Assembly: GCA_918797485.1 (NCBI GenBank)
Contig: CAKKNE010000003.1
Span: 3,968,001-4,032,000, forward strand
DNA length: 64,000 nt
Direction of reading: 5' to 3'
Source: Pelagomonas calceolata
Lineage: Eukaryota
A model generated the notes under the pieces. The model was given only the letters and a program-made list of their open reading frames with translations. It ran no database searches and was not told where the DNA came from. Position 1 is the first letter of the stretch, and every line of letters begins with the position of its first letter. The translations under genes and the position numbers were made by a program. Positions 2 to 26,037 of the stretch are shown piece by piece.

Positions 2-1063
2 GTGGTCGTGAATCGTCAGTTCAAGAAGGAGTTCTACGACGCACAGATACTCACGGGCCGAGCTTGCATGGCGTTGACGGGCCAGGACTGCGAGGCCTCC
101 GCCGCCGAGGCCCGGAAATGGTACAGGGTCTGTGCCGACATGCATGGCACGAGGGAAGCGTATTGCATGCTCGGCGGGATAGCGAACGAGGGCGGGGCGT
201 CGAGCGTGCTCGCCGAGATGGTGAGCCCCCTCGGCGACGCTGCCATCGACCTAGACGAGTCGGAGCGATGCCTCCGCGCCGCGATCGCCGCCGATAATTC
301 TCCTCCGGGGTCCTACCATTTGTTAGCGCCGCCGGACCACGCGCTCGACGCCGCGAAAGTTGATTTGGCCATGACGTTGGCCGATAAGGCCTGGTTCGAT
401 CCCGAGGGAACCAATGCGCCCTATCTTCTCGCCGAGGCGGGTATTCTCCTCGACGCGGTCCTGGATCACGACGAGGTCCCGAGTGTGCACGAGGTGCCGT
501 TCCGCTACCCGCGCCGCGAGGCGGCCACGCTGAAGGCGCAGATGATCCAGAAAGGGGACGTGGCGGGGACCCCGACCGACGTCCTGGCGCTCATCGAGGC
601 CATACCCCCGGACGAACGCGACGCGAACTGCGACTACCTGCTGGGCAAGATCTACATGAGGCTCGACGAAGAGACGCCGAACGACGAGCACGCGGCGCGC
701 GCCTTCCATCACATCCACCGCGCGTTCGACGCGGGCCACCCGCGCACGCCTTTCGAAATGGGGCAGCTCGCGGAGCGCGGCCGCGGCACCGACCTGAGCT
801 TGTCCAATGCCTACTTCATGTATCTGCGTAACGCGTTTCACGGCGGCGACGGGAACGAGCGCTCCATCGCGCGCCTCGCCGAAGACGCCGCGGCGGGGCC
901 GCCCTACCCTCCGGAGCTCATCGAGACGATGGAGGACTTCGACGAGCTGCGGGCGTATGCCGACGAAAACGACGGAACCCTGAACGTGGAGGAGGCATTT
1001 GCCTTTTTGGGCATTGGGGCACAGTCGTCTTCTGACGACGACACGTACGACGACAGTGATTGA
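2..1063 (+). CDS. SEL1-like repeat protein, 5'-partial (runs off window start)
   Basis: Open frame from window edge; SEL1-type helices (AEARKWYRVCA, YLLGKIY, FEMGQLAERGRGTDLSLSNAYFMY); acidic tail. Confidence 0.7.
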   Translation: MVVNRQFKKEFYDAQILTGRACMALTGQDCEASAAEARKWYRVCADMHGTREAYCMLGGIANEGGASSVLAEMVSPLGDAAIDLDESERCLRAAIAADNSPPGSYHLLAPPDHALDAAKVDLAMTLADKAWFDPEGTNAPYLLAEAGILLDAVLDHDEVPSVHEVPFRYPRREAATLKAQMIQKGDVAGTPTDVLALIEAIPPDERDANCDYLLGKIYMRLDEETPNDEHAARAFHHIHRAFDAGHPRTPFEMGQLAERGRGTDLSLSNAYFMYLRNAFHGGDGNERSIARLAEDAAAGPPYPPELIETMEDFDELRAYADENDGTLNVEEAFAFLGIGAQSSSDDDTYDDSD

Positions 1064-1083: not shown

Positions 1084-2442
1084 TTACGACTTCGACGTCT
1101 CCCCCCAGTCCGCCCGCACCTGGACCTCGGGAAACATGAACGACTGCGTCGACCAGCCCGCGTCCCGCAACGCGGTCCGCAGCGCCTCGCGACCCGCCCG
1201 CGCCTTTGATAGACCCTCGGTGCCTATTCTGAGTGATCGAGCGCGCGCATGTAAAGCATCCAACAGCGCGTCGTCGGTGGCGCCGTCCCGCAAAACGATC
1301 GCACCGTCCAGCACCAGGAAATCGTCCGTCGACGCCAACGCCACGTGCCGGTCGAGCTCGTCGCGCGACATGCCAGACGCCGCGGTCATCAGCGGCCGCA
1401 GGACACTCGTTCGCGTCGTCCGTGGCCTTCTTAATATACGTTCCCGCCGCGCGATGTCCCGGGGCGAGGGGCAAACGCCACTCTCGACGTACTCGTCAAC
1501 CACTAAAGTTGCCCGCTCAAAGTTCAACTGGCGAAAAACCACACAAGCGATCTCGCGGTACATGGCCCCGATCTCCAGCAGCGAGAGCGACCCGTAGATC
1601 GCTAATAACATCCTCGGGTTCGCCTGCGTCGAAGCCACGCCCAACTTCTTCGAGGCGACGAGGCCGATCAACAAACCTACGAGATCGACGACCGCAATTT
1701 GCGCTTCTCCCTTCGCAGTAACGTCGCCGAGGTTGTTCGTGGTCTCCGTCGCCGCAAAACTTCGATAGATGGCGGACCGCGTCGCCGTCGAGGTCAGCAT
1801 GCTAACTTGCTTGAGGCAGTTCGCGACTGTTGCTAATAGCAAGAACAGTAGTGGAAACGCGAACGTCGCGATCTGCAGCCCGTTGCCCGTCGCATACAAC
1901 AAAGAAGATCGGAACCGCCATCTTTTAGCGTCGCCGTCGAACTCCCGACCCATCCTCGCCGCCCAGCCGAGGCGCGTCACTTTCCCCAATGCGTCTTTGA
2001 GGACCCAGTCTACGGCTGCGGCCGCGCCCACGACCGCACCGCCCGCCGCGACGGCCCGCGCATCTCTCAATCCCACAGCCATGACCATGGCCTGGACCCC
2101 AAAGACATTTACGGTGGCGCTCAGTAAACGTTGCACGCAGCGCCATCGGGTATAAGATACGTATTCCTCGTTGACCGCTACTGGTAAAAAGATCCTCCGC
2201 AAGTTTCGTCGCGTCGACGCGTAGGCCCTATCCCTCAAGCTGCCGGCGGCGCCGTCGTTCCTATCTCTGAGGTATTCGGCGGACCCGTCGGTGCACTCGA
2301 CTTGCTGGCGCGAGCCGTCGCTGTCGATCTGGACGAGGCAGGCGTGCTGCGGTGGTGCGCGTCTTCCTAGAAACGACCGCGGGGCCACCAATGCGGCCGC
2401 CCGCGCCGCGAGCCCCAACAGCAAGTGCTGCCTGAGGATCAT
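1084..2442 (-). CDS. RUS1/DUF647 (root UVB-sensitive) family protein, probably plastid-targeted
   Basis: Motifs WVLKDALGK, FDGDAKRWR, NLGDVTAKGEAQ, LNFERA typical of DUF647; N-terminal signal-like peptide. Confidence 0.85.
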   Translation of the reverse strand: MILRQHLLLGLAARAAALVAPRSFLGRRAPPQHACLVQIDSDGSRQQVECTDGSAEYLRDRNDGAAGSLRDRAYASTRRNLRRIFLPVAVNEEYVSYTRWRCVQRLLSATVNVFGVQAMVMAVGLRDARAVAAGGAVVGAAAAVDWVLKDALGKVTRLGWAARMGREFDGDAKRWRFRSSLLYATGNGLQIATFAFPLLFLLLATVANCLKQVSMLTSTATRSAIYRSFAATETTNNLGDVTAKGEAQIAVVDLVGLLIGLVASKKLGVASTQANPRMLLAIYGSLSLLEIGAMYREIACVVFRQLNFERATLVVDEYVESGVCPSPRDIARRERILRRPRTTRTSVLRPLMTAASGMSRDELDRHVALASTDDFLVLDGAIVLRDGATDDALLDALHARARSLRIGTEGLSKARAGREALRTALRDAGWSTQSFMFPEVQVRADWGETSKS

Positions 2443-3138
2443 GGCTTACGGCGCAGCGGTCGTACGAGCGCAGGTCTCGAGCGCAGCAGCGGCGCAAAAT
2501 AGAGTCGTGCGGTAATCTGTGCAGCGCTGCGGTCTGATGTTGACTATACGGCTGGATTGCGATGGCTCCTATGCACCTCGCCGGCGGCAAAGGATTGATT
2601 TTGGAGTCGCCGCAGAGTTCCACGCGCGACGGCTCGCGCCCGGAGGCGTCGGCGAAGACGGGTGCGCTGCGCCGCGGCGTCCAAAGGCGGGAGACGCACC
2701 GCGCGCGTTCCCGTCGGGACCGCGGCCCTGCAGCGCAAGGGCCGGAGCGCCGCGGGAGCCGTCCCGCGGGACCCCGTGGTCTGGCGTCGCGGGGGTAATC
2801 TGTGCGGCTCCGCGTGGAGCAACTTGCGCTCAGTTTGCCGTGAGGCCCAGACCTGCCGCACATGCGGCACAGGGCAGCAAGCTCCACCGGAAGATAGTTA
2901 TATCTGGCCCCATCGTTGTCTGCGCGTCACACGGCTGCAAACCTGCACGGCTGCACCGATTCCTGTCGCCGCGCGCGCCGCACGCAGCGCACAGACCAGG
3001 TTCGCCTCACTGCTCTCACTGCCAGAGCTCTGCGACGCGGCACCCGCTGCGCGCGTGAAGCAAAAGAAGGAGTGCCTGGGCCCCGCCGCGGAGAACCACG
3101 CTGCCAGAAGGGAAAACGGCCGGCGGTGAAAAGGGACG

Positions 3139-4215
3139 ATGGCGCAAGTGCTCAAGCCCCCCGCGCGCCGCCGCAGTCCCTCCTCAGAACAATTTAAGAA
3201 AGATGCGGACCAGAGCCGCATGCTCCAGGCGCCCGCGCGCCGCCGCAGCGCCTCGTTCGAAAAGCCGGACTTGCCTCCGAGAACGCCAAGCAAAGCCGAG
3301 CTGCGAGAACTGGCCGAACGCGACTGGCGCCTCGAGGTCGTCCTGGCCACTTGTGTAGCAATCGCTCTCGGACTGGCCATCTTCCGGGACATGTACATTG
3401 GTGGGTTGGGAAGTTCGAACGGGAGGATTGTGTCCTTCCTGGCCTCGCTCAACGGCTGCGCCGGTTTTAGGAGACAGAAGAAAGCGGTACGAGCCCACAA
3501 AGCGCGGACCACAGAAAAGTTCCGGCGGCTCGAGTCGCTGCACCTCGCCGCGCCGAGTCCCCCTCGCCACAAGGTCCAACTCATGTGCATCGCTTTTAGT
3601 AACAAGTTCGCAACCCAGAGCATCGGGTCGTTGCTCGTCGGCGCGACTCCCGTGATCTTGAAGGGCTGGCGCCACGTGAGCAGCTGGTTTTTGGCCTTCG
3701 CGCTCGTCCAGATCGCGCCGAGGGATGTGGTCTACGACGCTCTCACGAGACATGTGTTTCTTGCGTTTGTGGTGAAAGTCGGCGCCGCGCTGTACAAGCT
3801 CCGCAAATTTAATTTTGTGGTGTCGGCGTGTCCTCATTGCTCCCTGCAGTTCCTGCTGATGGTCATGCTTGTCACAATAGACGGCAACAACGCGTGTAGT
3901 CGGTGCATGACCTGGCTCTGGATGCGCGGGACCGCCAATACGAAACGGAAGCACATTCTGAGAGGGATCGGAGCGTTCGCGGCGCGGTCGGGGCCCGTGC
4001 TGCTGGCCGCAGCCTTCATCAGAACAACGCGCTCGTGCAAGGACAAGTATGGGAAATTACTGGTGCTCGTCGTGTTTCTCCATAGAAATGGCTGCGCGGG
4101 GTTGTTGCTGCGGACGGCGCGGACGGCGCGAAGAGGTATGGATAGCCCGTCCTACGTCGGCGAGGCGTTCCCCGTGCGGAGGAGCCCGCGGCTGCGCGGG
4201 GAGAAGGTGGATTAA
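3139..4215 (+). CDS. Hypothetical multi-pass membrane protein
   Basis: 358-aa ATG ORF with several hydrophobic segments; duplicated N-terminal PARRRS motif; fits gene spacing. Confidence 0.55.
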   Translation: MAQVLKPPARRRSPSSEQFKKDADQSRMLQAPARRRSASFEKPDLPPRTPSKAELRELAERDWRLEVVLATCVAIALGLAIFRDMYIGGLGSSNGRIVSFLASLNGCAGFRRQKKAVRAHKARTTEKFRRLESLHLAAPSPPRHKVQLMCIAFSNKFATQSIGSLLVGATPVILKGWRHVSSWFLAFALVQIAPRDVVYDALTRHVFLAFVVKVGAALYKLRKFNFVVSACPHCSLQFLLMVMLVTIDGNNACSRCMTWLWMRGTANTKRKHILRGIGAFAARSGPVLLAAAFIRTTRSCKDKYGKLLVLVVFLHRNGCAGLLLRTARTARRGMDSPSYVGEAFPVRRSPRLRGEKVD

Positions 4216-4237: not shown

Positions 4238-4996
4238 TCACTCGGGCGTCGGCAGCAGCTTCTGGAGCGCTCCTAATAAACGCAGCTGCAGCGACCCCTT
4301 GAAGGGCTGGCACTCCGGGAAGGGCAGGGGGTTGCCCGTGCCCCAGAAGTAGCCGAAGGCCCCGCCTAGTCCTCCGGTATTTCCTGCGGTCCGATCTATC
4401 ACGTACCCCACGGTAAACAGCTCGACCTGGCCGTCTTCATTGAACGTCATGCTCAGCGCCTCCGGCGGTAGTTCTAGCGCCTTGCCCGTCGCCGCCGCGC
4501 CCATGAGCTCGCCCGTGTGCGTCGCCTTGGCCCTCGTTTGAAACCAGACCCGATTCGGTTCAAACACGTCCACCCGGAACGCGTGGTAGCGGTTGTTCAA
4601 GTTCGGAAAGGCCTTTAACAGATCGAAGGATCTGAGAGATGCGAGGAACTCCGCTTTCGTGAAGCCGATCTTCTCGCCCGTCGTCGACGTGGCCCCTCCC
4701 ACGAACGGCGCCACAAATCTAAAATTGTCGGCGTATATACTATCATCAAAAACGGCCGGGTCCTGGAGGTTCTGGTTTTTGACGATGACCTCTTTGGCTC
4801 TTGCTATCAAGTCGTCGGGGGCGATGGGGAAGCCCGTGCGGTCGCGGTTCGCTTGTAATGTCGCGGCCTCGTCGACGAAGCCGTACTGGTCCGTGACTTC
4901 GAGCAAGGCGCGCAGCGTGTGCGGTCGTCGCAGCGGCGTCGCGTGCTGGAACGAGCCGGCTAGGGAGAGCAGGGCTGCTAATGAGAGCGTGCGCAT
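4238..4996 (-). CDS. SnoaL/NTF2-like fold protein with signal/plastid presequence
   Basis: MRTLSLAALLSLAGSF presequence; FRVDVFEPNRVWF..ATHTG, GNTGGLGGAFG motifs seen in algal SnoaL-like proteins. Confidence 0.7.
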   Translation of the reverse strand: MRTLSLAALLSLAGSFQHATPLRRPHTLRALLEVTDQYGFVDEAATLQANRDRTGFPIAPDDLIARAKEVIVKNQNLQDPAVFDDSIYADNFRFVAPFVGGATSTTGEKIGFTKAEFLASLRSFDLLKAFPNLNNRYHAFRVDVFEPNRVWFQTRAKATHTGELMGAAATGKALELPPEALSMTFNEDGQVELFTVGYVIDRTAGNTGGLGGAFGYFWGTGNPLPFPECQPFKGSLQLRLLGALQKLLPTPE

Positions 4997-14221: not shown

Positions 14222-17200
14222 ATGGCCGCCGAAGACGAGGGCGACGGCCCCGTCGCCGCGTTGCTACGGGACGGCCTCGACGCCGAGGCGCCGGCGGAGC
14301 CCGCCGCCGCGCTGCGCCAGAGCGTCAACACGTCCTGGGACGCCTCCGCCGAACGGGCTGCCCTCCGCGACAACCTGAACGCCTACCTCACGCGCGAGGC
14401 CGCCGCCTATTCGGGCAAGGAGAACCAGTGGAAGAACGCCCAGGGCGAGAAGTCCGAGCTCGCGGCCACGCAAGCTAAATTGCTCCGCGAGGCCGAGGAG
14501 TTGAGAAGAAGGGAAGAGCTCGCGCTCGTCGCGAAGCGCGAGCGCGACGCGCGGGAGCAGGATCGCAAGCGGGCTACCGATGAAAGGGAAGCGGCCCTCG
14601 GGGCGCTGTCGCAAACGCTCGAGTCGCACTTTACGCGACTGGGCGCCGACGAAGCGAACGCCGCGCGGCGCCAGGCAGAACTGCGAGCGAGGAGCGACGA
14701 GGCCGCCGCGCGCCTCGAGGAGGTCAAAGCCCAGGACTTGCAGCGGAGGCAGGCCGCTGCGTGGCTCCGGGAAGAAATGGTCCGTTCCGAGCTCGAACGC
14801 GAGGAGCGCGAAGCGGCCATCGCCGCCACCGAAGCGACGCTTAGGGACGAACTGAAACGAGCCCGAGACGAACGGGAGGCCGCCGTCGCGACGCAGACGG
14901 CCGCGGAGGGCCGCCACGCGACGGCGCAGATGCGGGAAGACGCCTGCTTGGATAGGGAGGAAGCTGTTGAGAAACGAGAACTGGGCATGGACGCCATGGA
15001 GGCGTATCTGGCCGCGCGCGAGGCCTTCGCGGCCGAGGACGAGCGCGCGCGCCATACCCTTGCTCGAGATGTTGATGCGAGAGCCCACGCCATCGCTGCT
15101 GCTGATACGTTATCAAAACAACGGCTCGCCGCCCTCGGCGCGAAGTCCGAGCAGCTCGCGGCGACGCGCGATGACCTCGAGGCGCTGGCGCTGAAGGCGG
15201 ACGAGCGGAGCCGCATGGCGGACGACCGCGAGCGTCAGGCGCAACTCGCTGAAGAACGTGCGAAGGAGGAGCAGGCGCGGGCGCTGGCGTTGCTCGCCGA
15301 AGCCGAGGCGAAGCGGCGCGAGGCCGAGAAGGCGCTGGAGGACGCCCTACGGGAAGCCGCGAGGAAGGCGGAAGAAGCTCTGGAGAAGCGCGAGGCGCTG
15401 GACCGCGAGGCGGAGCTTGAGAGAAGGCGGTTGCTGGAACTCGCCGAGGCGAAGCGACGAGACCTGGAAAAGCAGTACGCGGACGAGCTGCGAAAGGCGT
15501 CGGACGAGGCGGCGGGAAAGCGGAAGCAGCTGGAAAATGATATTTTGAAAAGAATGGACAAGTTGGATGATCTGAAGAAGGAGCACGAGGAGAAGATCGA
15601 GAGCGAGAGAGCTAGGTTGCACGACCTCGCGCGCCACGGCGAGGAGCAGCGGCGCGAGATGCTCAAGGACGTGTCTGAGAGAGCAAAAGACGTCGCGGCG
15701 CGCGAGGAGCGCGTGCGGACGCAGAAGCCGCGCATCATCACGCAGACCGTGACTCATCATAAAGAACAACCTTCTCTTGGCGCGTTTGGGTCGTACGAGC
15801 CCGCGGCGTCGCCCGCGCCCACGCGGAGCCCACCACCGTCGTATGGGGCGCAGCCGACGCCGGCCGCGGACCCCTTCACGGATCCCTACGACGTCGCCGA
15901 GGCGAAAGCTGAAGATCTCTATGTCGAGGGCGAGACGCAGGAGGTGGTGCCCCAGCGGAAGCCGCGCATCGGGTTGGGTGCTCTCGCGAAATTAGGTGGT
16001 GCGGCGTCGCGGGCTAGGAAGGCCGCGGCCAAGAAGGCGCGCGAGGCCGAGGAGCGGGCGAAGAAGGAGGCCGAAGCGGCCGCGGCGAAGGAGGCTGCTG
16101 CGAAACGCGAGGCCGAGGAGGCCGCGGCGCGGGAAGCCAAAGCGCAAGCGGAGGCGGCCGAAGCCGCTCGTGCCGAAGAGGAGGCCAAGCGCTTGGCCGA
16201 AGAAGCCGCGGCCCGGGAAGCCGCCGCTCTGAAGGCGGCCGAGGAGGCGGCCCGTGCTGAAGAGGAAGCCAAGCGGGAGGCAGAGGCCGCCGCTGCGCGC
16301 GAGGCCAAGGCCCAGGAAGAGGCGGCCGAAGCGGCTCGTAAATTGGAGGAGTTGAAGCGCCAGGAGGCGGACGCCGCGAGAATCGCCGAGGCCGAGGCCC
16401 TGGCCAAAGAAGCTGCTGAGAAGGAACGGAAGGCCCAAGAAGCATCCGACGAGGCCGACCGCATCGCTGCCGAGAAGGCCGAGGCGGAAAGGATCGCGCA
16501 AGAGCGTGCTGACGCCGAGGCGAAAGAGAAGGAGGAGGCTGATAGGATCGCTGCCGAGAAGGCCGAGGCGGAACGTCTGCTGAAGGAGCAGGCCGAGGCA
16601 GAAGCTAAAAAGTCAGACGAGGCAGACCGGCTCGCGGCAGCAGCAGCTAAGGCCTCCGACGATGCCGACAAGGCTCAGAAGGAGGCTGAAGAAAAAGCCG
16701 ACGAGGCGGAGGAAGCCGTCGAGCGGGAGACTGAGGGCGAGGGTATTCTACCAGCTGCACGCACGATTGGGTTGGGCGCCGTGGAGCAGCTCGGCGGCGT
16801 GCAGCGCTCCGTACAACATCGCGCGCGTTCGCCGCCGGCGCCCACGTCCCCTTACGCGGGCGCTGAAGCTTATACCTTGGCCTATTCGGGCGCCCCGCCG
16901 TCGCAGATCCTGGCCGGGGCGCCGCCGCCGTTGCCGCCTCCGGTTCGGAACCCGACGGGGCCGACCAGCGCCCGAGAGAACGCGCTGGAAGCAAGGGAGC
17001 TGGCTTTGGAAGAGAGGTTGCGCTACGTCGAGGCCATGCTTGCGGCAAAAACGAGGATGGAGGGGAGTGTCTCGCGTGGAGCTGCTTCCCGCCACCCCTG
17101 GATCGAGCCTCGATCCGCGGAACCGCCCGCGCCGGGCAACGACGCCGGCGAGGTAGTGGCGTGGTGCCGCCGTGTCGGTGAGGCGTTAAATTCGCAGCAG

Positions 17201-18422
17201 CTGGCGGCCCACGACGCCGTCAAGCACGCGCACCACCAGATCAAGCTGACGGCCGCGCCGGCGTCGGGCGGCAACGCCTGGGCGTTATTACCGAGGGACG
17301 TGCGCCACGCGCTTCGGGATGCTGTCCAGCAGGGCGATGCCGTAAGAAGAGCCGTCACGGACCTGCAGGCGGTTCTTGTGAGGAGATTTTTAAGATTATG
17401 CTCCCAGAAAGACGGCCATGAGCCTGACTCGGCCCTGAAGGATGCTTTAAGGGTAGTGCGCGGGGCCGCTTCCAGGGAAGTTGTGAGACGAAAGGCGCTG
17501 TGCGCGGCGTTGCATGATGCCCAGTACAAGGCCGCAGAGGGGGTACTGAAAAGAATTCGGGACCGACCACCGTCGGCTTCTGTCGCTAGAGATCTCTTCC
17601 GGCTACGAAAGAACCGGTTCGACGCTTTGAGGTTGCGAACGCCGGCGGCCAAAGCAAGGTTCGCCGCAGCGACGGCGAAGTGGAGCTCGGCTGAGTTCCG
17701 CCGGTTGCTCAGACAACTCGCGCTGCAGTTCAACGGCGACCGCGCGCGGGCTTTCCCGGGGGGTGGTGCCTCGTCGCTAGAGCCGGGTGTGTTCTACGGT
17801 TTTGAGGATGCTGCCCAAGCTCACGCCCCGGCGCCGAGAGTGGAGTGTAGGTTCGACGACGACGGCGACGACGGCGGCCACGCGAACCGGGCCGCGCTCG
17901 TGTTCCAGAGCCCCAAGGATCTCGTGAACTGCTTCGAGGCGCTCGAGAACGACGGCCGATTGGACATCGTGGCGGTGTCGAACGGCTTCCTAAACTCGCT
18001 CAAAGATGTCGCCGACGAGAACACGAAGCCGACGCTAGCTCCTGTGTGGAAATCAACGAATGAGTTAGCCGGGGACAACGTCGCATCGATGGCGTGAGGC
18101 GCCTGAAATTTGATTTCCACACAGGTCAGCTCCCCATGAGGTCGCGCTCGCCGTCGACTTGTTGCGGCAAGGTATCCTCTGCGACGTTCGACTTAGACTC
18201 AGGGCGCTGGAGCGGCCCCAGCGCCACCTCGGCTCGCTGGCATTCTTAGCGGACGCGTCGACGCACGAGGAGATCCTCCTACCCATCTGGCCCGACGTGT
18301 GCCACTACGACGGCTGGTCCCCCAACATCAGCGCGCGGGACCGCGTGCCGACGGTGGCGAAGAGCGTGGACTTCGCGCCGCGCGACTACCGGAAACCTGC
18401 TAGGTGGGGGCAGACGAACTAA
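14222..18422 (+). CDS. Large Ala/Glu-rich coiled-coil protein with degenerate RelA/SpoT-like C-terminal domain; exons 14222-18033, 18125-18422
   Basis: 1291-aa ORF joined to ORF 18159 by a TIR-bounded intron (GC donor 18034 or GT donor 18046, both frame-compatible). Confidence 0.75.
18042..18124 (+). mobile_element. Introner (non-autonomous TIR DNA transposon), short 83-bp copy
   Basis: Perfect 15-bp TIR ctgtgtggaaatcaa / ttgatttccacacag; degenerate 8-bp TSD gctagctc / gtcagctc. Confidence 0.9.
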
Positions 18423-18435
18423 GTTTTGGTCGTTA

Positions 18436-21400
18436 CTAGAAGTTACTATCGAACCAGGGGCTAGAGGGCGCCGGCGGCGGCGGGAGGTCCTCCGGCGGGC
18501 CGCCCGACGACTCCGGCGGCGGCGGTGGCGGCGCGTCTGCGGTCGCGCCGAACGCGGTGGACGCACGAATGGCGGCGCGTAGCTTGTTCGTCGTCGCGTG
18601 GCTGTGGGTGCCCGCAGCCGTCGCCGCCGGTCCGTCGTCCGCCTCCATGTCGCCGGCCGAGAGCGCCACCAACAGTTTCGCGCTGAGCCAGCCGATCGTG
18701 TCGCCAGAAATCACGCAGCACCGTTCCGCGCCGTCGCGCGTCGTCGCTCGCTCGCGCACGGTCACAATGGTGCCGCTGGGCAGGTCCGCGACGAGCGGCG
18801 AGTCCAGCTCGACGCCCGCCCGCAGGCGCGCCCCGCTCTTGCCCGAGACGACGAAGACCGGTGCAGCGGGCCCGCCCGCGGTCTGGGCCCGACCGGCCTC
18901 GATGTCGGTCTTGCCCGCGCGCGACGGGAACCAGCTCGACCGCGACGGCGCTGGTGACGGGGCAGGCGCCGGCGCCGCGCTCGGCTGCGCCTCGAGGTCC
19001 TTCGCCGGCGCTGGCTGGGCCGGCGCCGCGCTTGTCTGCGCTTCCAGGTCTGTCCTCGGCGGTGGCTGAGCCGGCGCTGCGCTCGTCGGCGCTTCCAGGT
19101 CCGTTTCCGCCGCGGGCGCGGCCTTCTTCGTAGGTCCCCTGAACCAGTTCGACCCTGTCTTGCTCGTTTTTGCCGGAGCTGGCCGCGGTGCCGCCTTGGT
19201 CGGCGCCTTCTTGGTTGCTGCAGGCCTCGGCGCCGCCTTAGTCGACGTCTCGGCCGTGGCGGTCCTCTTGGCGACGGGCGCGCGGCCCTTGGCACTCGCG
19301 GAGCTTTTCGCGGGCGCGGCAGCCGTAGGCGCCGTGGACGCCTCCTGCGCCGCCGCGCCGTCGTCGTCATCGTCGTCTTTATCGCCGCCGACGTCGAGCG
19401 AGCTCGTGCTCCGGAAGTTCGAGAGGGCGCGAGCAAACATGGATCTCATGGACCCTTGCCGCTGTTCCGCTGCCCGCGGCGAGCTCCAGGGGCGGATCTC
19501 GGACGTCGAGGAGGGCCGCTTCGGCGTCGTCGCCTTGAGCTGCTTGCAAATGTCGGAAAAGCTCGGCCGCGCGTCCGGCTCGTCGGCCCACGCACTCTTC
19601 ATGAGTGAAATCATGTCACTAGGCATGGTCTTTGGAATGTCAGGCCGCGCGCGCTTGATCAGCACCTTCGAGAGGATCTGCTGCGGCTTGAGTCCCGCCC
19701 ATGGGAGGCGGCGGTCGTAGATTTCCCAGAGGACCATAGCGTAGGAGTAGACGTCGCTCTTCTCCGTGAACACGTTCTCATCAAGAAGCTCTGGCGCCAT
19801 GAAAGCGGGCGTACCCGCGAGGCCGCCGTCGCGCATCGTGCTGGCCGTCGTAGAGGTCTTCAAATCGTCGGCCTTGCCCAACCCAAAGTCAGAGATCTTG
19901 CCGCGGCCATCCAGCGTGAGCAAGACGTTCGCGGCCTTCAGGTCGCGGTGCTCGATCTTGCACGAGTAGAGGTAGGCCATGCCCTGGGCTACGTCGGAAG
20001 CCCAAAACCGTTTGTACTCCGGAGTAATTTCTTCGTCCTCTTTGACCAGCGCCTGTCGCAGCGAACCCCCCGGCATGTACTCCATCACTAAACCGAGGTA
20101 CGTGGCGTCAGTCGTGATGATACCCAGCACTTGCACGATCCGGGGATGTCTCAATCTAACCATGATCGACAACTCCGTCGCGAAGGACTGATACATCTTC
20201 ATGCGCTCCGCAGCGGGCACGCCAACCATATTAATGCATTTAATGCAGACCGTCTCCGCCGCGTACTCGGCAAGACGCACGACGGCCTGGCCGCCGCGCG
20301 CAAATGGATCCGGGTCTACGTATTCGGGCTTAATCTCGAAGTCCTTCAGGTTCTTGCGTTTGTCGCGCCGCGCGGCTCCGTGCTGGAGCTTTTTCTCCAG
20401 CGAATCGGATATATTTTTGACGTGTTCCTTAAATGATCCGTCGCGGTTCAGCGCGGCGAGAATCTGCTTATCCCTTTCAGCGCCCGCCTCAACGGCGGCC
20501 AACAAGTTCTCGTCGCGCCGCACGCCCGCGTTGACCGCCTTCATAATAGATCGGAGGTGCTGCCGGTCGCTGTTTTTGCGCTCCAACATGGCTCGCATGC
20601 CCTGGTCTAGTTTTGCGAGACCTTGGCGTACCTCGAGCCGGAACTCCTGCAATTCGGTCGCGATCTCCGTCGGCGGCACATGAGCATCGACAGCAACAGA
20701 GGTAATCGCGACGGCGTCCTCCGAGAGCGCCGCGGCCGCCTTCTCCTCGGATTCCCCTTTCTCGACGACGCGCTTCGCGACGAGCGCCGTGATGGACTGC
20801 TCGATCTGGTAGGTTCGCTCCATCATTTTCGCATCAATTGCCAACTGGTAGCTCAGCCGGAAGACGCCCAGCTGCTCGACGATGCGCTTATCGATGCGGC
20901 CCAGCTTCTTGACGTGGCTCTGCATGGTGAACGCGCGCTTGAGCCAGCCCTTCTGCCCGAAGGCGCGCACGGCCGCGTGGAATTCCTTCAGTAAGTCGAT
21001 GAGCCGCTGCATGTTCGCTTGGGCAATATCTTTGCCGTCTGAGCACTTCGAGACGTTCTTCGACATGAGATCAACCACGTCCAGGACGTCGATGACGCGC
21101 CGCGCCGCAACGAGGACGTCGTCGGCTTTCTCCGAGAACTCCTCGACGTCACCGAGAATTCCCTTGGCGACGTCGCAAAGCGGTCTGACGAGCGGCAGGC
21201 CGCTCGCAGCGCCGAGCAGTGCCGAGGTCACGGTCATGCCTCGTTCGACCACAGCCGTCGTGTCCTTGTGCCGCTGCAGCAGAGCCTCGCGGGTCTTCGG
21301 ATCGTAGCCGGTCTCCTCGGAGCCTCGAAGCGCGGCCGCTTCGTCGCCTTGCCGCAGCGCTGCCTTTGTCCGTCTCCTGCGCCAGACGACGCCGCCGCCG

Positions 21401-24400
21401 AAGAGTGCCAGCAGGACGACAGCCCCCACGGCGCCAATGCCCGCGCCCATCGCCGCGTCTGGGCCGCCGCCGCCGCCGCCGCCGGAGCTCCCTTCGCTGG
21501 CGCTGGTGGCCGGGGCGTCGTCGGTGGCGGGGGCGTCGTCGTCCGGCTCGGGTGCCAAAGCCGTCGTAGGCGTCCCGACCGTAGTCGTTTCGACGTCTGC
21601 GAAGTCTTCATCAACACCAGCTTCGGTCGCGGCCGTTTTCACTGCTGTGCTTACGTCCTCCGTCGAGCTGTCTTCGATCAACGCGCTGACAGATGCAGCT
21701 TCCTCCGCGGTCTCAACCTCGATAGTGTAGGTCACCACGACGCCAGCGTCGTCGAGGCGACGGCGCCGCGCTTGGGAGATGTCCACGGTCACCATGACGC
21801 CAGCGTCGTCGAGGCGACGGCGCCGCGCTTGGGAGATCTCCACGGTCACAAGAGACTCGTCCACCTCGTACAATGAGGCGACCGCTGCCACAAACACGTT
21901 GGTGCTGGCCAGCGCTGTCTCGTACGTGATGCCGTCGAAGGTGAGGTCGCCGGTCACGATAAATTCCGGCGTGCCCACGGGCGACGGCGTCGGGGGCAGC
22001 GGTTCTTGCCAGGAGCCAACACACCATACTTCACCGCAGTCGTTCTCGCACTGATCTCTCCCGTTCCAACAGACCTGTTTCGTCGACACCGCCGTACAGA
22101 CGCCGCAGTCTCCGGTGGAGCAGCAGTAGCCCGGAGCTGCCGTCGGGCTGCTCGTCGGACCCGGAGTCGGCCGCGGCGTCGGAGCAAAGACGGGCGCCGC
22201 CGTCGGATTTCCGGGCGTCGCGGTTGGCGAGGGCGACGGCCTCGGCGTGGGCGCTGGCGACGGCGAATGAGAGGGCCGAGGCGTCGGCGCTGGGATAGGC
22301 GACGGCGTGGGCCTGGGCGACGGAGCCGGCAACGGCGCTGGCGTCGGCGGCCGCGTCGGCAGGGGACTCGGAATCGGTGTGGGCCGCGGCGTGGGCTGCG
22401 GCGTCGGGCGCGGCGTCGGGCTGAAGACCGGGCTCGCCGTCGGGCTTCCCGGCGTGGTGGTCGGCGACGGCGATGGGCGCGGAGTCGGGCGCGGCGTAGG
22501 CGTCTGGGTCGGCGACGGCGTGGGTCGCGGTGTTGGCGACGACGTGGGTCGCGGCGTGGGCCTTTGCGTCGGCGCTGGCGTCGGCTTCGGCGTCGGCTTC
22601 GGCGTAGGGCGCGCGCTCGGCGTGGGCGTCGGCCTGGGCGACGGGCGCGGCGTCGGGCTCGGTGTGGGCTGGCGAGTTGGTCGAGCAGTGGGCCTCGGCG
22701 TCGGGCTGAAGACCGGGCGCGCCGTCGGGTCGCCAGGAGTGATGGTCGGCGACGGCGATGGGCGCGGCGTCGGCTGTCGCGTCGGCCGCGGGCTGGGTCG
22801 AGGCGTCGGCGCGAAGGCTGGCGCAGCAGTGGGATCACCGGGCACCGGCGTCGGGTGCGGCGAGGGCCTCGGGGTCGGGCGCGGCGACGGCAACGGCGTC
22901 GGCATAGGTGTGGGCTGCGGTGTAGGCTTCGGCGAGGGTGCGGGCGTCGGTCGCCATGTCGGGCGCTTGCTGGGCTCGGGCGACGGCTTCGGCGTGGGTG
23001 CAGGCGTCGGCCGCGGCGTCGGCGTCGATGTCGGTTGGGGAGTCGGGCGCAAGCTGGGCGCGGGCGTCGGTCGCCGCGTTGGCCGCTTGCTGGGCGCGGG
23101 CGTCGGCCGCGGCGTAGGAATCGGAGTCGGCTTCGGCGTCGGAGACGCCGTGGGGCGCGGCGAAGGAGACTGCGATGGCCGTGGAGTTGGACTTGGAAAC
23201 GTGGGGCGAGGCGTCGGACCAGGCGTCGGTCTTGGCGTCGGCCTCGGGCAGTTGGCGAGGTTGCTGACTTGCACGACGCCACACGACGTCGACGAGCACG
23301 GGGTGCCGCTGAACGCCGAGTGCAGTTCCACGCCATAGTCCACGCACCAGCCGAGGTCCTGGTTAAAGGCCGAGGCATACTCGAACATCTCCTCCATATC
23401 GATAACAGCTCCAACGCTCCAGCCACCAATGTCCTGATTGAAGGAGGATGCGTCCTGGAACAACTCGTTCATCGACGTTACACTAGAGGTATCCCAAGCG
23501 CTAATGTCCTCGTTGAAAGACGAGGCTTCCTCAAACAACTCATCCATGTCCGTTACCCCGCCAGTCTCCCACGTGGAAATGTGGCCGTACGTCGTCTCGG
23601 CGGCCGTCGCGTCCGCCAACCACGCTGCAACGGCAATTTTGATTTTCCAATTGACCATGATGTTGCCCGTGCGCGAGATGTCGCAGTCAACTCCCGCGAT
23701 GCCGCACGACGTCGACGAGCACGGGGTGCCGCTGAACGCGTAGTCCAGGTCCACGTCATCGGCCACGCACCAGCCGAGGTCCTGGTTGAAGGCTGAGGCG
23801 CCTTGGAACATCTCTTCCATATCGAGAACAGCTCCAACGTTCCAGCCGCTAATGTCCTGGTCGAAGGCCGAGGCATAATAGAACATGTATTCCATGGTCG
23901 TAACGCCAGAGGTATCCCACGCGCCGATGTCCTCGTTAAATGCCGCAGCACCGTTGCATTGCCCTTCCTCATCTTCGTCTTCATTTTCACTACTCCCACA
24001 AAACAACCACGACATGTCCGTCACCCCCCCGGTCTCCCACGTCGAGATGTGCCCGTACGTCGCCTCGGCGGCAGTCGCGTCTGCGAGCCACGCTACGGCT
24101 GCCCATTTGATTTTCCAGTTGACCATGATGTTTCCTGTCTTCGCAATATCGCAATCGCCAGAGTTCTCTGCTTGCGCGACGCCGCACGACGTCGACTCGC
24201 ACTGGGTGCTGGAGAACGCGTCCTCCGTGTCCACGTCGTCGGCCACGCACCAGCCGAGGTCCTGGTCGAAGGCCGAGTTACCGGGATCACCGTCGAACAT
24301 CATTTCCATACTTGTGACACTGTCGACGCTCCACTTGCCGATTGGTTGGTTGAACGATGAAGCCATGACGAACATCATATACATGCTCGTTACGCTGGAG

Positions 24401-26037
24401 GTATCCCATGCGCTGATGTCTTCGTTGAAGGACAATGCGGCCGTGTTGCAATCACTCCATCCTGGTATCGCACAAAACAAATACGCCATGTCAGTCACCC
24501 CCGATGTGTCCCAAGTCGAAATGTGGCCGTACGTCGCCTCGGCGGCCGACGCGTCCGCAAACCACGCATCGCGAGCCGTGTATATGGTGCTGTCGGTCAT
24601 GACGTAGCCCGCCATTGCCGTGAAGGCATAGACCTTGCCGCCGGTGCCAGCTTGCATGGCCGCGACCACGATTGTGTTGCCGTCGATCGCCACGGAGCCG
24701 CCGAAGCTGTCGTATGCCGCGGCATCGGAGGCACTCAGCTTGGCCAGGCCGTTCGTGACACCGCCGTCGTACGTGGCACCGCCGTCGTCCGTGCGGAAGA
24801 CGTAGGCGGAGCCCCTGTAGCCGTTCTCGTAGTGGGCACCCACCACGATGGTGTTGCCGGCGATCGCTACGGAGCCGCCGAAGCGGTCGTTCGTCGCGGC
24901 GTCGTCGGCCGTCAGCTTGATCTCTGTGTGCGTGTCCCAGCCGTCGCTCGTGCGGAAGACGTAGGCCGATCCCGAGCTGGAGCCGCTGTCGTCGTCGCCG
25001 TAGGCTCCAATCGCAATGGTGGCGCCGGCGATCGCCACGGAGTAGCCGAAGTTGTCGCTTGCTGCGGCGTCGGAGGCCGTCAGCTTGGCCACCTGACCGT
25101 ACGTGGCGCCGCCGTCGCTTGTGTGGAAGACGTAGGCTGCGCCTCTACTGGAGCTCTTGGTGTAGGCACCGACCACGATTGTCTCACCGTCGATGGCGAC
25201 AGATACTCCGAAGTAGTCGCCCGTCGCGGCGTCGGAGGCCGTCAGCTTGATCTCTGTGTACGTGCCCCAGTCGTCGCTCGTACGGAAGACGTAAACCGCG
25301 CCTGGCTCGAACGAGGGGGTCCCAGCCTTAGCGGCCCCGATCGCGATGGTGGCGCCGGAGATCGCCACGGAGTAGCCGAATAAATCCATATAACTGGCGT
25401 CGGAGGCCCCCAGCTTAGCCACCTGGCCGTACGTGACGCCGCCGTTGGTCGTGCGGAAGACGTAGGCCTTGCCAATACCCGCGAGTAAGCAAGGTCCCGA
25501 GCCGCACGACGAGTCCTTTTCCTCCCTGGCCCCGACCACGACGGTGTCGCCGTCGACGGCTACGGAGTAGCCGAGTTTGGCGTAATCTTTGCTGCCTGTG
25601 TACATGGCCACCTGCGCATAGGTGGCGCCCTCGTCAGCCGTCCGAAAGATGTAGGCTATGCCAGCTTCGTTGTATATATTGGTATCTCTCGTCGGATTCC
25701 CGACCACGACGGTGTTGCCGTCAACGGCTACGGACCAGCCGAACCAGTCGCTCGCCTCGCCATCGGAGGCCGTCAGTTTCGCAAGCTGCGCGTAGTATTC
25801 GCTCAGCCGCCGCCTGTCAAGCGACGTCGGCGCCGGCAGCCGACGGACAACTTCGCTCGAAGCCGCGCCGGGCTGGACCAACTGAAGCGCGCTGGACGCG
25901 TTCGTCGGGCGCCGCGGTCCGCGGAGCCGCGTTCGGGAGCCCGGGGCGCTCGCACCAGCGTTCGATTCCAGCAGCCGGCAGGGGGCAGCCAACAGTGCCA
26001 GGGCAGCCCAGAAGCAGCGGCAGCGCCGCGGCGGCAT
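18436..26037 (-). CDS. Single-pass receptor kinase: signal peptide, FG-GAP repeats, BspA-like DUF285 repeats, Pro/Thr stalk, TM, MLKL-like helical domain, TKL kinase, SH3-like domain
   Basis: Intronless ORF; first ATG 26037 precedes a signal peptide; FGxSVAIDGxTIVVGA repeats, WDTSxVTxM/FNQDLGW repeats, [23 protein letters not shown]. Confidence 0.9.
21739..21849 (-). repeat. Tandem duplication of a ~57-bp coding unit ([18 protein letters not shown] twice)
   Basis: acgccagcgtcgtcgaggcgacggcgccgcgcttgggagat occurs twice consecutively. Confidence 0.85.
22140..23250 (-). repeat. Mucin/extensin-like PTPRPT/PSP coding repeats
   Basis: About 370 aa of P-T/S-P-R repeats within the receptor ORF. Confidence 0.9.

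Follow-up and report, generated by a model that had tools for sequence, protein, structure and literature searches.

Known helical bundles of the MLKL type belong to cytosolic proteins, in animals, plants and fungi alike. In animal MLKL and Arabidopsis MLKL3 (AtMLKL3) the bundle stands first in a cytosolic chain and is followed by a brace and a kinase-fold domain, the latter a pseudokinase. The wheat/Aegilops protein Pm13, an MLKL-K, carries an MLKL-type bundle, a helical brace and a catalytically intact kinase in this order, and parts of PMC10951266 and PMC11297308 describe it as cytoplasmic/nuclear, without a signal peptide and with a plant receptor-like kinase (RLK)-type (DLSV) kinase. In basidiomycetes, BaMLKL/Goodbye-like domains with a four-helix MLKL core and an extra N-terminal helix head NACHT NLRs, as sections of bioRxiv 2022.03.16.484565 report. 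Plant RLKs and protist transmembrane (TM) kinases form a separate comparison, with a signal peptide, a repeat ectodomain, a stalk, one TM helix and a cytoplasmic kinase. Here we describe a gene from the pelagophyte Pelagomonas calceolata, located in a stretch of 64,000 nucleotides (the window; assembly GCA_918797485.1, contig CAKKNE010000003.1, positions 3,968,001 to 4,032,000), in which a single stop-free open reading frame (ORF) of 2533 codons on the minus strand encodes a predicted receptor with, very probably, an MLKL_N-like helical bundle between its membrane helix and its kinase.

The layout shares features with all of these systems and matches none of them. Compared with Pm13, the Pelagomonas receptor adds a 1500-residue ectodomain and a TM helix before the bundle and an SH3b-like tail after the kinase. 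Unlike in MLKL, the bundle begins only at residue 1614, after the ectodomain, TM helix and an extra helix, and the kinase motifs are intact. Whereas the fungal domain heads its protein, the Pelagomonas bundle lies between TM helix and kinase, and relative to RLKs and protist TM kinases the receptor adds a structured juxtamembrane region of about 340 residues that includes the MLKL-type bundle. The type I layout with a bundle between TM helix and kinase is a distinct variant. In agreement with the original prediction, which was made from the DNA letters and did not recognize the architecture as a characterized one, a literature search turned up no description of a receptor kinase, in algae or elsewhere, whose juxtamembrane region contains an MLKL-type bundle, although supplementary tables of genome papers could hold a mention. 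A search pairing MLKL with Pelagomonas found nothing, and a term search of the main text of a protist TM kinase survey (PMC10463195) gave no occurrence of MLKL, FG-GAP or pelago-.

The segment that the original prediction called similar to the MLKL N-terminal domain corresponds to residues 1614-1703 (window positions 21198-20929), and family-level comparisons bear this proposal out. For residues 1580-1760 taken alone, MLKL_N (PF22215) is the best Pfam family, but its score of 17 bits (E 0.004) stays below the cut-off of 27. A phmmer search with the helical domain recovered 168 relatives at E ≤ 0.001, the best 150 of which were listed. MLKL_N is matched at E ≤ 0.1 by 32 of 62 aligned members (the query and 61 shorter relatives), and the next families, RPW8 (a relative of MLKL_N) and CCDC28, by five each; HeLo and MCAfunc do not appear among the 25 Pfam families that these 62 match most often. 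MLKL_N is among the best five families displayed for seven of 75 scanned relatives (of the 150 listed, E ≤ 0.001). One of the 75, P0029, exceeds the MLKL_N cut-off (27.6 bits); it also matches RPW8 (E 5e-6), and its link to the query has an E value of 2.7e-22. The top cluster in the ESM Atlas is fungal, has a score of 0.96 (211 of 256 features) and contains MLKL_N in 36% of its members; the nearest clusters belong to Mucoromycota and Basidiomycota. A longer Atlas query returns the same clusters plus plant MLKL_N/MCAfunc clusters at 0.84-0.86, which represent the same source of evidence, and Atlas rows for MCAfunc (0.86) and TNFAIP8 (0.87) serve as leads only. Sequence searches of the PDB with the helical domain yielded no significant match (human MLKL, at E 1.5, is not counted).

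Conservation within the bundle is concentrated at a few positions. Across the 92 rows that cover the domain, P1615 is kept in 99%, C1621 in 82%, D1640 in 90%, R1647 in 88%, G1697 in 89%, W1698 in 75% and D1716 in 98%. Residues 1697-1703 form a GWLKRAW-type motif with a basic residue at 1700 in 77% and at 1701 in 84% of these rows. The region of the extra helix ahead of the bundle (alpha0) has conserved residues of its own (G1600, L1608 and G/A1611). Codon comparisons with L001 and L002, two of 14 metagenome loci compared with the window (L numbers), are raw counts of differing codons and not dN/dS. Against L001, synonymous to nonsynonymous differences number 21:7 in the 123 codons of the bundle, 63:20 in 273 codons of the kinase, 7:10 in 84 codons of the stem and 38:37 in 319 codons of the tail; against L002 the corresponding counts are 20:7, 53:16, 18:21 and 30:36. 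This pattern shows that the bundle is under purifying selection and is constrained as much as the kinase.

Predicted structure agrees with the sequence evidence without being decisive. The AlphaFold model of residues 1580-1760 (pLDDT 89.5) contains helices at 1583-1610, 1617-1633, 1639-1664, 1669-1695 and 1702-1759, and it superposes on the human MLKL N-terminal domain (Z 10.5, rmsd 2.9, 120 aligned) and AtMLKL3 (Z 10.2, rmsd 3.4, 129 aligned). Because residue 1 of both proteins aligns to residue 1614, the first helix is extra. The five-helix model scores higher with designed proteins (14.2, 13.5), CAMP factor (13.4) and GCP4 (12.0). A shorter model, without alpha0 and the greater part of the final helix (pLDDT 79.5), was compared with 48,161 chains and aligns end to end with three MLKL structures at only 10-14% identity: AtMLKL3 6ka4 ranks 4th (Z 11.3, rmsd 3.1, 126 aligned), human MLKL 6ux8 5th (Z 11.2, rmsd 2.9, 119 aligned) and mouse MLKL 4btf 11th (Z 10.5, rmsd 3.0, 100 aligned), while the NRG1.1 CC-R domain ranks 22nd (9.8). 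GCP4 (13.5), a gamma-tubulin complex chain (13.2) and Sla2 (11.8) rank above the MLKLs, and a Z below about 13 may reflect an arrangement common among helical bundles. Foldseek found no match in the PDB at E ≤ 0.001 for either the full or the trimmed model; with the latter, NRG1.1 CC-R (rank 26) and MLKL 6zvo (rank 43) appear as non-significant rows. Since unrelated bundles outscore the MLKLs, whose Z values lie below 13, and Foldseek, which had been proposed as a check, returns no match at this threshold, the models by themselves are compatible with MLKL but do not discriminate. Taking sequence and structure together, we consider an MLKL-type ancestry of the domain highly probable.

The remaining parts of the chain (Table 1) largely follow the original prediction, which had listed about seven FG-GAP repeats, three DUF285 blocks, a Pro/Thr stalk, a small Cys module, one TM helix and an intact TKL kinase, all of which were recovered. 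It had missed the membrane-proximal stem of about 170 residues with two RRRRL motifs, the extra helix, and the brace/coiled-coil linker. The signal peptide is a call by eye, and a 19-residue hydropathy scan did not flag its region. The only peak above 1.6 in that scan covers residues 1533-1551 (2.25) and is followed by WRRRR, which predicts a type I single-pass receptor kinase with one TM helix between the N-terminal ectodomain and the kinase side. The FG-GAP_2 repeats are expected, judged from the family, to form a beta-propeller. The small Cys-rich module also occurs in L002, L003, L007-L011 and L013. No Pfam family was matched by the stem, whose RRRRL motifs (residues 1405 and 1424) are a possible processing site. 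The motif is doubled by a short tandem duplication (window positions 21754-21825); a double-basic form related to this one occurs in L003 and L011, and L008 has a single site.

The kinase matches Pfam PK_Tyr_Ser-Thr at residues 1927-2167 (E 1.8e-53). It is not of the pseudokinase type, as the VxxK lysine (VCIK, 1930), the alphaC glutamate (E1955), HRD (HRDLKAAN, 2030), DFG (2050) and APE (GTPAFMAPE, 2075) are all kept. The ten relatives that have both a TM segment and a kinase also retain the HRD-loop and DFG motifs, the latter as DFA in P0093. Its nearest solved kinases are mostly TKL enzymes: CTR1 at E 2e-40, TNNI3K and RIPK1 at about 5e-32, and MLKs also among them. The SH3b-like domain suggested earlier is a weak match, its SH3_3 score (19.5 bits) lying below the cut-off of 27; the domain is 94% identical in L001 and L002.

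Table 1. Features of the Pelagomonas receptor gene (window positions, minus strand, residue numbers of the 2533-residue product) and of its relatives (own coordinates).
Feature	Position or member	Strand	Residues	Basis or remark
Whole ORF (P0001)	18436..26037	(-)	2533 aa	no internal stops
Signal peptide, likely	25978..26037	(-)	1-~20	basic start, then hydrophobic; inspection; similar start in L011
Seven FG-GAP_2 repeats	24619..25782	(-)	86-473	Pfam E 8.6e-97, 7 stretches; motif positions
Three DUF285 (BspA-like) blocks	23245..24612	(-)	476-931	Pfam E 1.2e-79, 3 stretches
Pro/Thr-rich stalk	22138..23244	(-)	932-1300	41% Pro, 19% Thr
Small Cys-rich module	22018..22128	(-)	1304-1340	
Membrane-proximal stem	21463..21981	(-)	1353-1525	two RRRRL motifs
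Single predicted TM helix	21382..21441	(-)	1533-1552	followed by RRRR
Extra helix (alpha0) before bundle	21208..21291	(-)	1583-1610	AlphaFold helix
MLKL_N-like four-helix bundle	20830..21198	(-)	1614-1736	
Brace-like helix and helical linker	20353..20829	(-)	1737-1895	AlphaFold and self-association model
TKL-group protein kinase	19528..20352	(-)	1896-2170	all catalytic motifs
Low-complexity Ala/Pro/Lys tail	18838..19527	(-)	2171-2400	synonymous and nonsynonymous differences about equal against L001, L002
SH3b-like domain	18670..18837	(-)	2401-2456	Pfam SH3_3 E 0.0011
Receptor-type members, Chrysophaeum taylorii	P0043, P0093, P0086			
Receptor-type member, Aureoumbra lagunensis	P0096			
Non-receptor members, Chrysophaeum	P0042, P0045, P0048			
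Non-receptor member, haptophyte Prymnesium parvum	P0051			
FG-GAP_2 ectodomain	P0043, P0096, P0261			
FG-GAP_3 ectodomain	P0091			
Three SRCR domains as ectodomain	P0127			
FG-GAP and C-type lectin ectodomain	P0152			
DUF285-only ectodomain	L003			frame break or short intron near 1463
FG-GAP-only ectodomain	L011			frame change near 1052
GDSL-like ectodomain	L008			
Short intron	L001 ~1500-1643			
Short intron	L002 ~1791-1871			
Short introns	L005 ~400-508, ~663-741			
Short introns	L008 ~3078-3147, ~3281-3334, ~4367-4520			

The receptor is not an isolated case. Pelagophytes (Pelagomonas, Chrysophaeum and Aureoumbra) have a family in which a conserved TM-bundle-kinase core is joined to swapped ectodomains of FG-GAP, DUF285, GDSL, C-type lectin and SRCR types. 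The paralogues with swapped ectodomains whose search had been recommended were found in L003, L008, L011, P0163 and further P-number chains. At the DNA level, L003, L008 and L011 show about 75-82% identity with the window from stem through bundle. P0163, a P. calceolata protein from UniRef, is 93-97% identical in the TM helix and 97% in the bundle and differs in its ectodomain, a short Cys module, and in its kinase, which is only 66-69% identical; this combination suggests that a TM-bundle cassette was recently exchanged between paralogues. C-terminal modules vary as well (SH3b, SH3b plus an EF-hand-like module, or EF-hand).

Across 152 relatives, a TM-like segment lies no more than 200 residues upstream of the bundle in 29, ten of which also have a kinase loop downstream. 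The bundle is within 45 residues of the start in 60 (many of them fragments). A loose MG- acylation pattern fits 12, several of them doubtful cases; upstream sequence of another kind is present in 23, and 28 lack the beginning of the domain. In a quick tree of 92 domains with a midpoint root, a single clade of 39 rows contains 25 of the 26 rows labelled by hand as TM; its support (SH-aLRT 88) is not strong. In relatives that are not receptors, the bundle is combined with kinase, ankyrin, TPR, LRR, NACHT-like, Roc-COR or CHAT domains; P0144 is a cytosolic example with a NACHT-like domain, and P0048 from Chrysophaeum taylorii is a Roc-COR-CHAT protein whose MLKL-like bundle lies near its C-terminus.

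How might such a receptor work? We infer an immune role from architecture only, and we give roughly an even chance to a receptor kinase switched by clustering, in which bundle and brace act as the switch and the kinase provides the output. At rest, the bundle and brace just under the membrane would hold the kinase off, an autoinhibition modelled on Pm13. Binding of a partner by the variable outer modules would then let the bundle and brace cluster the chains and release the bundle-mediated inhibition. The receptor would thus signal by phosphorylating targets and not by forming a pore, plausibly, by analogy with Pm13, towards defence or cell death. Two sets of published observations lead us to favour clustering and kinase output over a pore-former, a non-immune sensor and an unrelated bundle. 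N-terminal tags compromise killing by MLKL, according to part of PMC7305131. The Pelagomonas bundle has no free N-terminus, because its MLKL-equivalent residue 1 is at about residue 1614, behind the TM helix and alpha0; 1613 residues precede the bundle and the first MLKL-equivalent helix begins about 60 residues past the TM helix. In Pm13, moreover, the one protein with an MLKL-type bundle and an active kinase for which such tests came to light, neither the bundle alone nor bundle plus brace is lethal, whereas the brace-kinase part is lethal in a kinase-dependent manner, and its authors propose autoinhibition by the bundle (sections of PMC11297308).

A prediction with four copies of residues 1580-1760, run without our alignment, fits brace-type clustering. 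Its score was 0.37 against 0.11 for the best of three controls, at least 87% of contacts recur between runs, pLDDT is at least 71, and the interface consists mainly of residues 1714-1756, that is, helix 4 and the brace, so that the first part of the long brace/coiled-coil linker is the predicted self-association surface. In a calibration on two copies, which the four-copy prediction lies outside, 21 of 30 solved homodimers and none of 23 single chains attained the score mark. Among eukaryotic proteins, 17 of 29 homodimers and none of 30 single chains did so, but only one of seven without an older solved relative.

Several points weigh against the clustering switch. One of the four copies barely participates in the predicted oligomer, which may be an artefact of the cut helix or a memory of solved coiled coils. 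The autoinhibition step would be transferred from one plant protein whose kinase is probably of a different lineage. The same bundle is found in relatives without a detected kinase (ankyrin, TPR and Roc-COR-CHAT proteins); there it cannot serve to restrain a kinase and has the look of an effector. Nor is the bundle obligatory for the receptor's kinase clade: among 120 kinase relatives 30 have it and 20 do not, 70 being too short upstream (<150 residues), and P0199 has a stalk, a TM helix, a kinase and an OTU domain without the bundle.

Alternatively, the bundle could execute cells directly, a reading that we regard as unlikely. Ligand-driven clustering and self-phosphorylation, or a cut, would free the tethered bundle, which would make holes in the membrane or let Ca2+ through and so kill an infected cell. 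The MLKL-like sequence and fold speak for this, as do the conserved basic-aromatic GWLKRAW-type motif, the frequent placement of the bundle at membranes among relatives (the TM-like segments and the MG- starts counted above), their NACHT-like, TPR, ankyrin, Roc-COR and CHAT partners, and the EF-hand modules of some paralogues. The best natural match of the five-helix model is also a pore-forming protein, CAMP factor (rmsd 4.0, 135 aligned), a resemblance that may be no more than a common arrangement. On the other hand, the N-terminus of the bundle is not free and the extra helix precedes it, no cleavage site below the TM helix was identified, the Pm13 bundle is not lethal, and for fungal domains with an N-terminal extension the authors call the death function open in part of bioRxiv 2022.03.16.484565. 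Thus, of the original idea of one chain coupling a surface sensor to an effector, the chain of ectodomain, bundle and kinase stands, whereas the bundle as its death effector is less likely for want of a free N-terminus and in view of Pm13.

We consider it rather improbable that the protein is a non-immune surface sensor that reads glycans, adhesion or the environment and has co-opted the bundle as a scaffold or decoy with no link to death. The gene does sit among housekeeping genes without a paralogue in the window, its downstream synteny is kept in L001, and GDSL and lectin ectodomains hint at carbohydrates. Opposed to this are the immune-type architectures of the cytosolic relatives and the exchange of ectodomains among copies whose cores are 80-97% alike, a pattern typical of non-self recognition. 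DUF285 repeats point both ways. The 75 DUF285 genes of P. calceolata show responses to light and to nitrate, as reported in part of bioRxiv 10.64898/2026.09.29.755320, and DUF285 alone therefore does not imply defence. Passages of bioRxiv 2024.10.30.620910 and PMC5917014 nevertheless describe an exchange of such genes between the pelagophyte Aureococcus and its giant virus. Least credible, and in our estimate very improbable, is a generic four-helix bundle without kinship to MLKL. It would account for the sub-threshold Pfam score, the lack of significant Foldseek and PDB sequence matches, and the GCP4, gamma-tubulin complex and Sla2 scores above or level with MLKL. It would leave unexplained the preponderance of MLKL_N over all other families among aligned members, the P0029 link, the MLKL_N content of the top Atlas cluster and the alignment of three MLKL structures from their first residues.

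If the bundle were after all the executioner, pelagophytes would possess a family of one-chain death receptors, each a membrane-spanning polypeptide that unites a shuffled surface sensor with an active kinase of RIPK-like type and an executioner of MLKL type. Such a possibility is tentative and on balance improbable, but if true, the receptor-RIPK-MLKL route of animal necroptosis would be compressed into one gene directed against giant viruses or other attackers of abundant ocean phytoplankton. A type I receptor family with a bundle under its TM helix extends the MLKL superfamily to stramenopile cell-surface signalling and offers specific candidates for the recognition of non-self by phytoplankton, both bloom-forming species and those of the open ocean. 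The family also makes it testable whether an MLKL-type bundle kills or regulates when its N-terminus is blocked and the kinase next to it is active, and natural variants with and without the bundle (P0199), or with differing ectodomains, supply the controls.

Nine kinases of the receptor's kinase clade (P0194, P0213, P0215, P0217, P0219, P0220, P0233, P0237 and P0254) have different short N-terminal domains that look helical, begin with a hydrophobic segment and do not match the bundle profile. In the five that were scanned, no N-terminal Pfam family was found except a weak DUF7902 in P0233. These domains are possibly further effectors. Ten bundle relatives (P0016, P0034, P0037, P0044, P0068, P0079, P0080, P0097, P0118 and P0134) start with MG-C/S/A. 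Starts of this kind are typical of N-myristoylation or palmitoylation, and they are a candidate second way of holding the bundle at the membrane.

Misassembly was rejected as the origin of the layout because L008 and L011 run from ectodomain to bundle in one frame, because P0152, P0043, P0096, P0091, P0127 and P0261 are independent chains of ectodomain, TM helix, bundle and kinase, and because GC content peaks at the third codon position in every block except the Pro-rich stalk. Neighbouring genes in the window with Pfam matches encode an LRR_9 protein, a family B DNA polymerase, a ubiquitin protease, a photolyase and PTPA. A tblastx synteny scan gave mostly noise; only L001 is truly syntenic, downstream of the gene. 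There, tail to tail with the receptor gene, lies an Ala/Arg/Glu-rich ORF of 1291 codons (window positions 14222-18097, plus strand) that is syntenic in L001 and has no Pfam family at E ≤ 0.01.

The 3′ end of this ORF carries an 85-bp element (window positions 18041-18125) with perfect 16-nt inverted ends, which is missing at the matching place in L001. Its ends resemble the intron ends (CACAG/CGCAG) of relatives' genes. Short introns with these endings occur in close relatives at residues ~1655, 1697, 1785, 1833, 1938 and 2042, and the window gene is continuous at all six positions. The pattern is like that of recently inserted introner elements.

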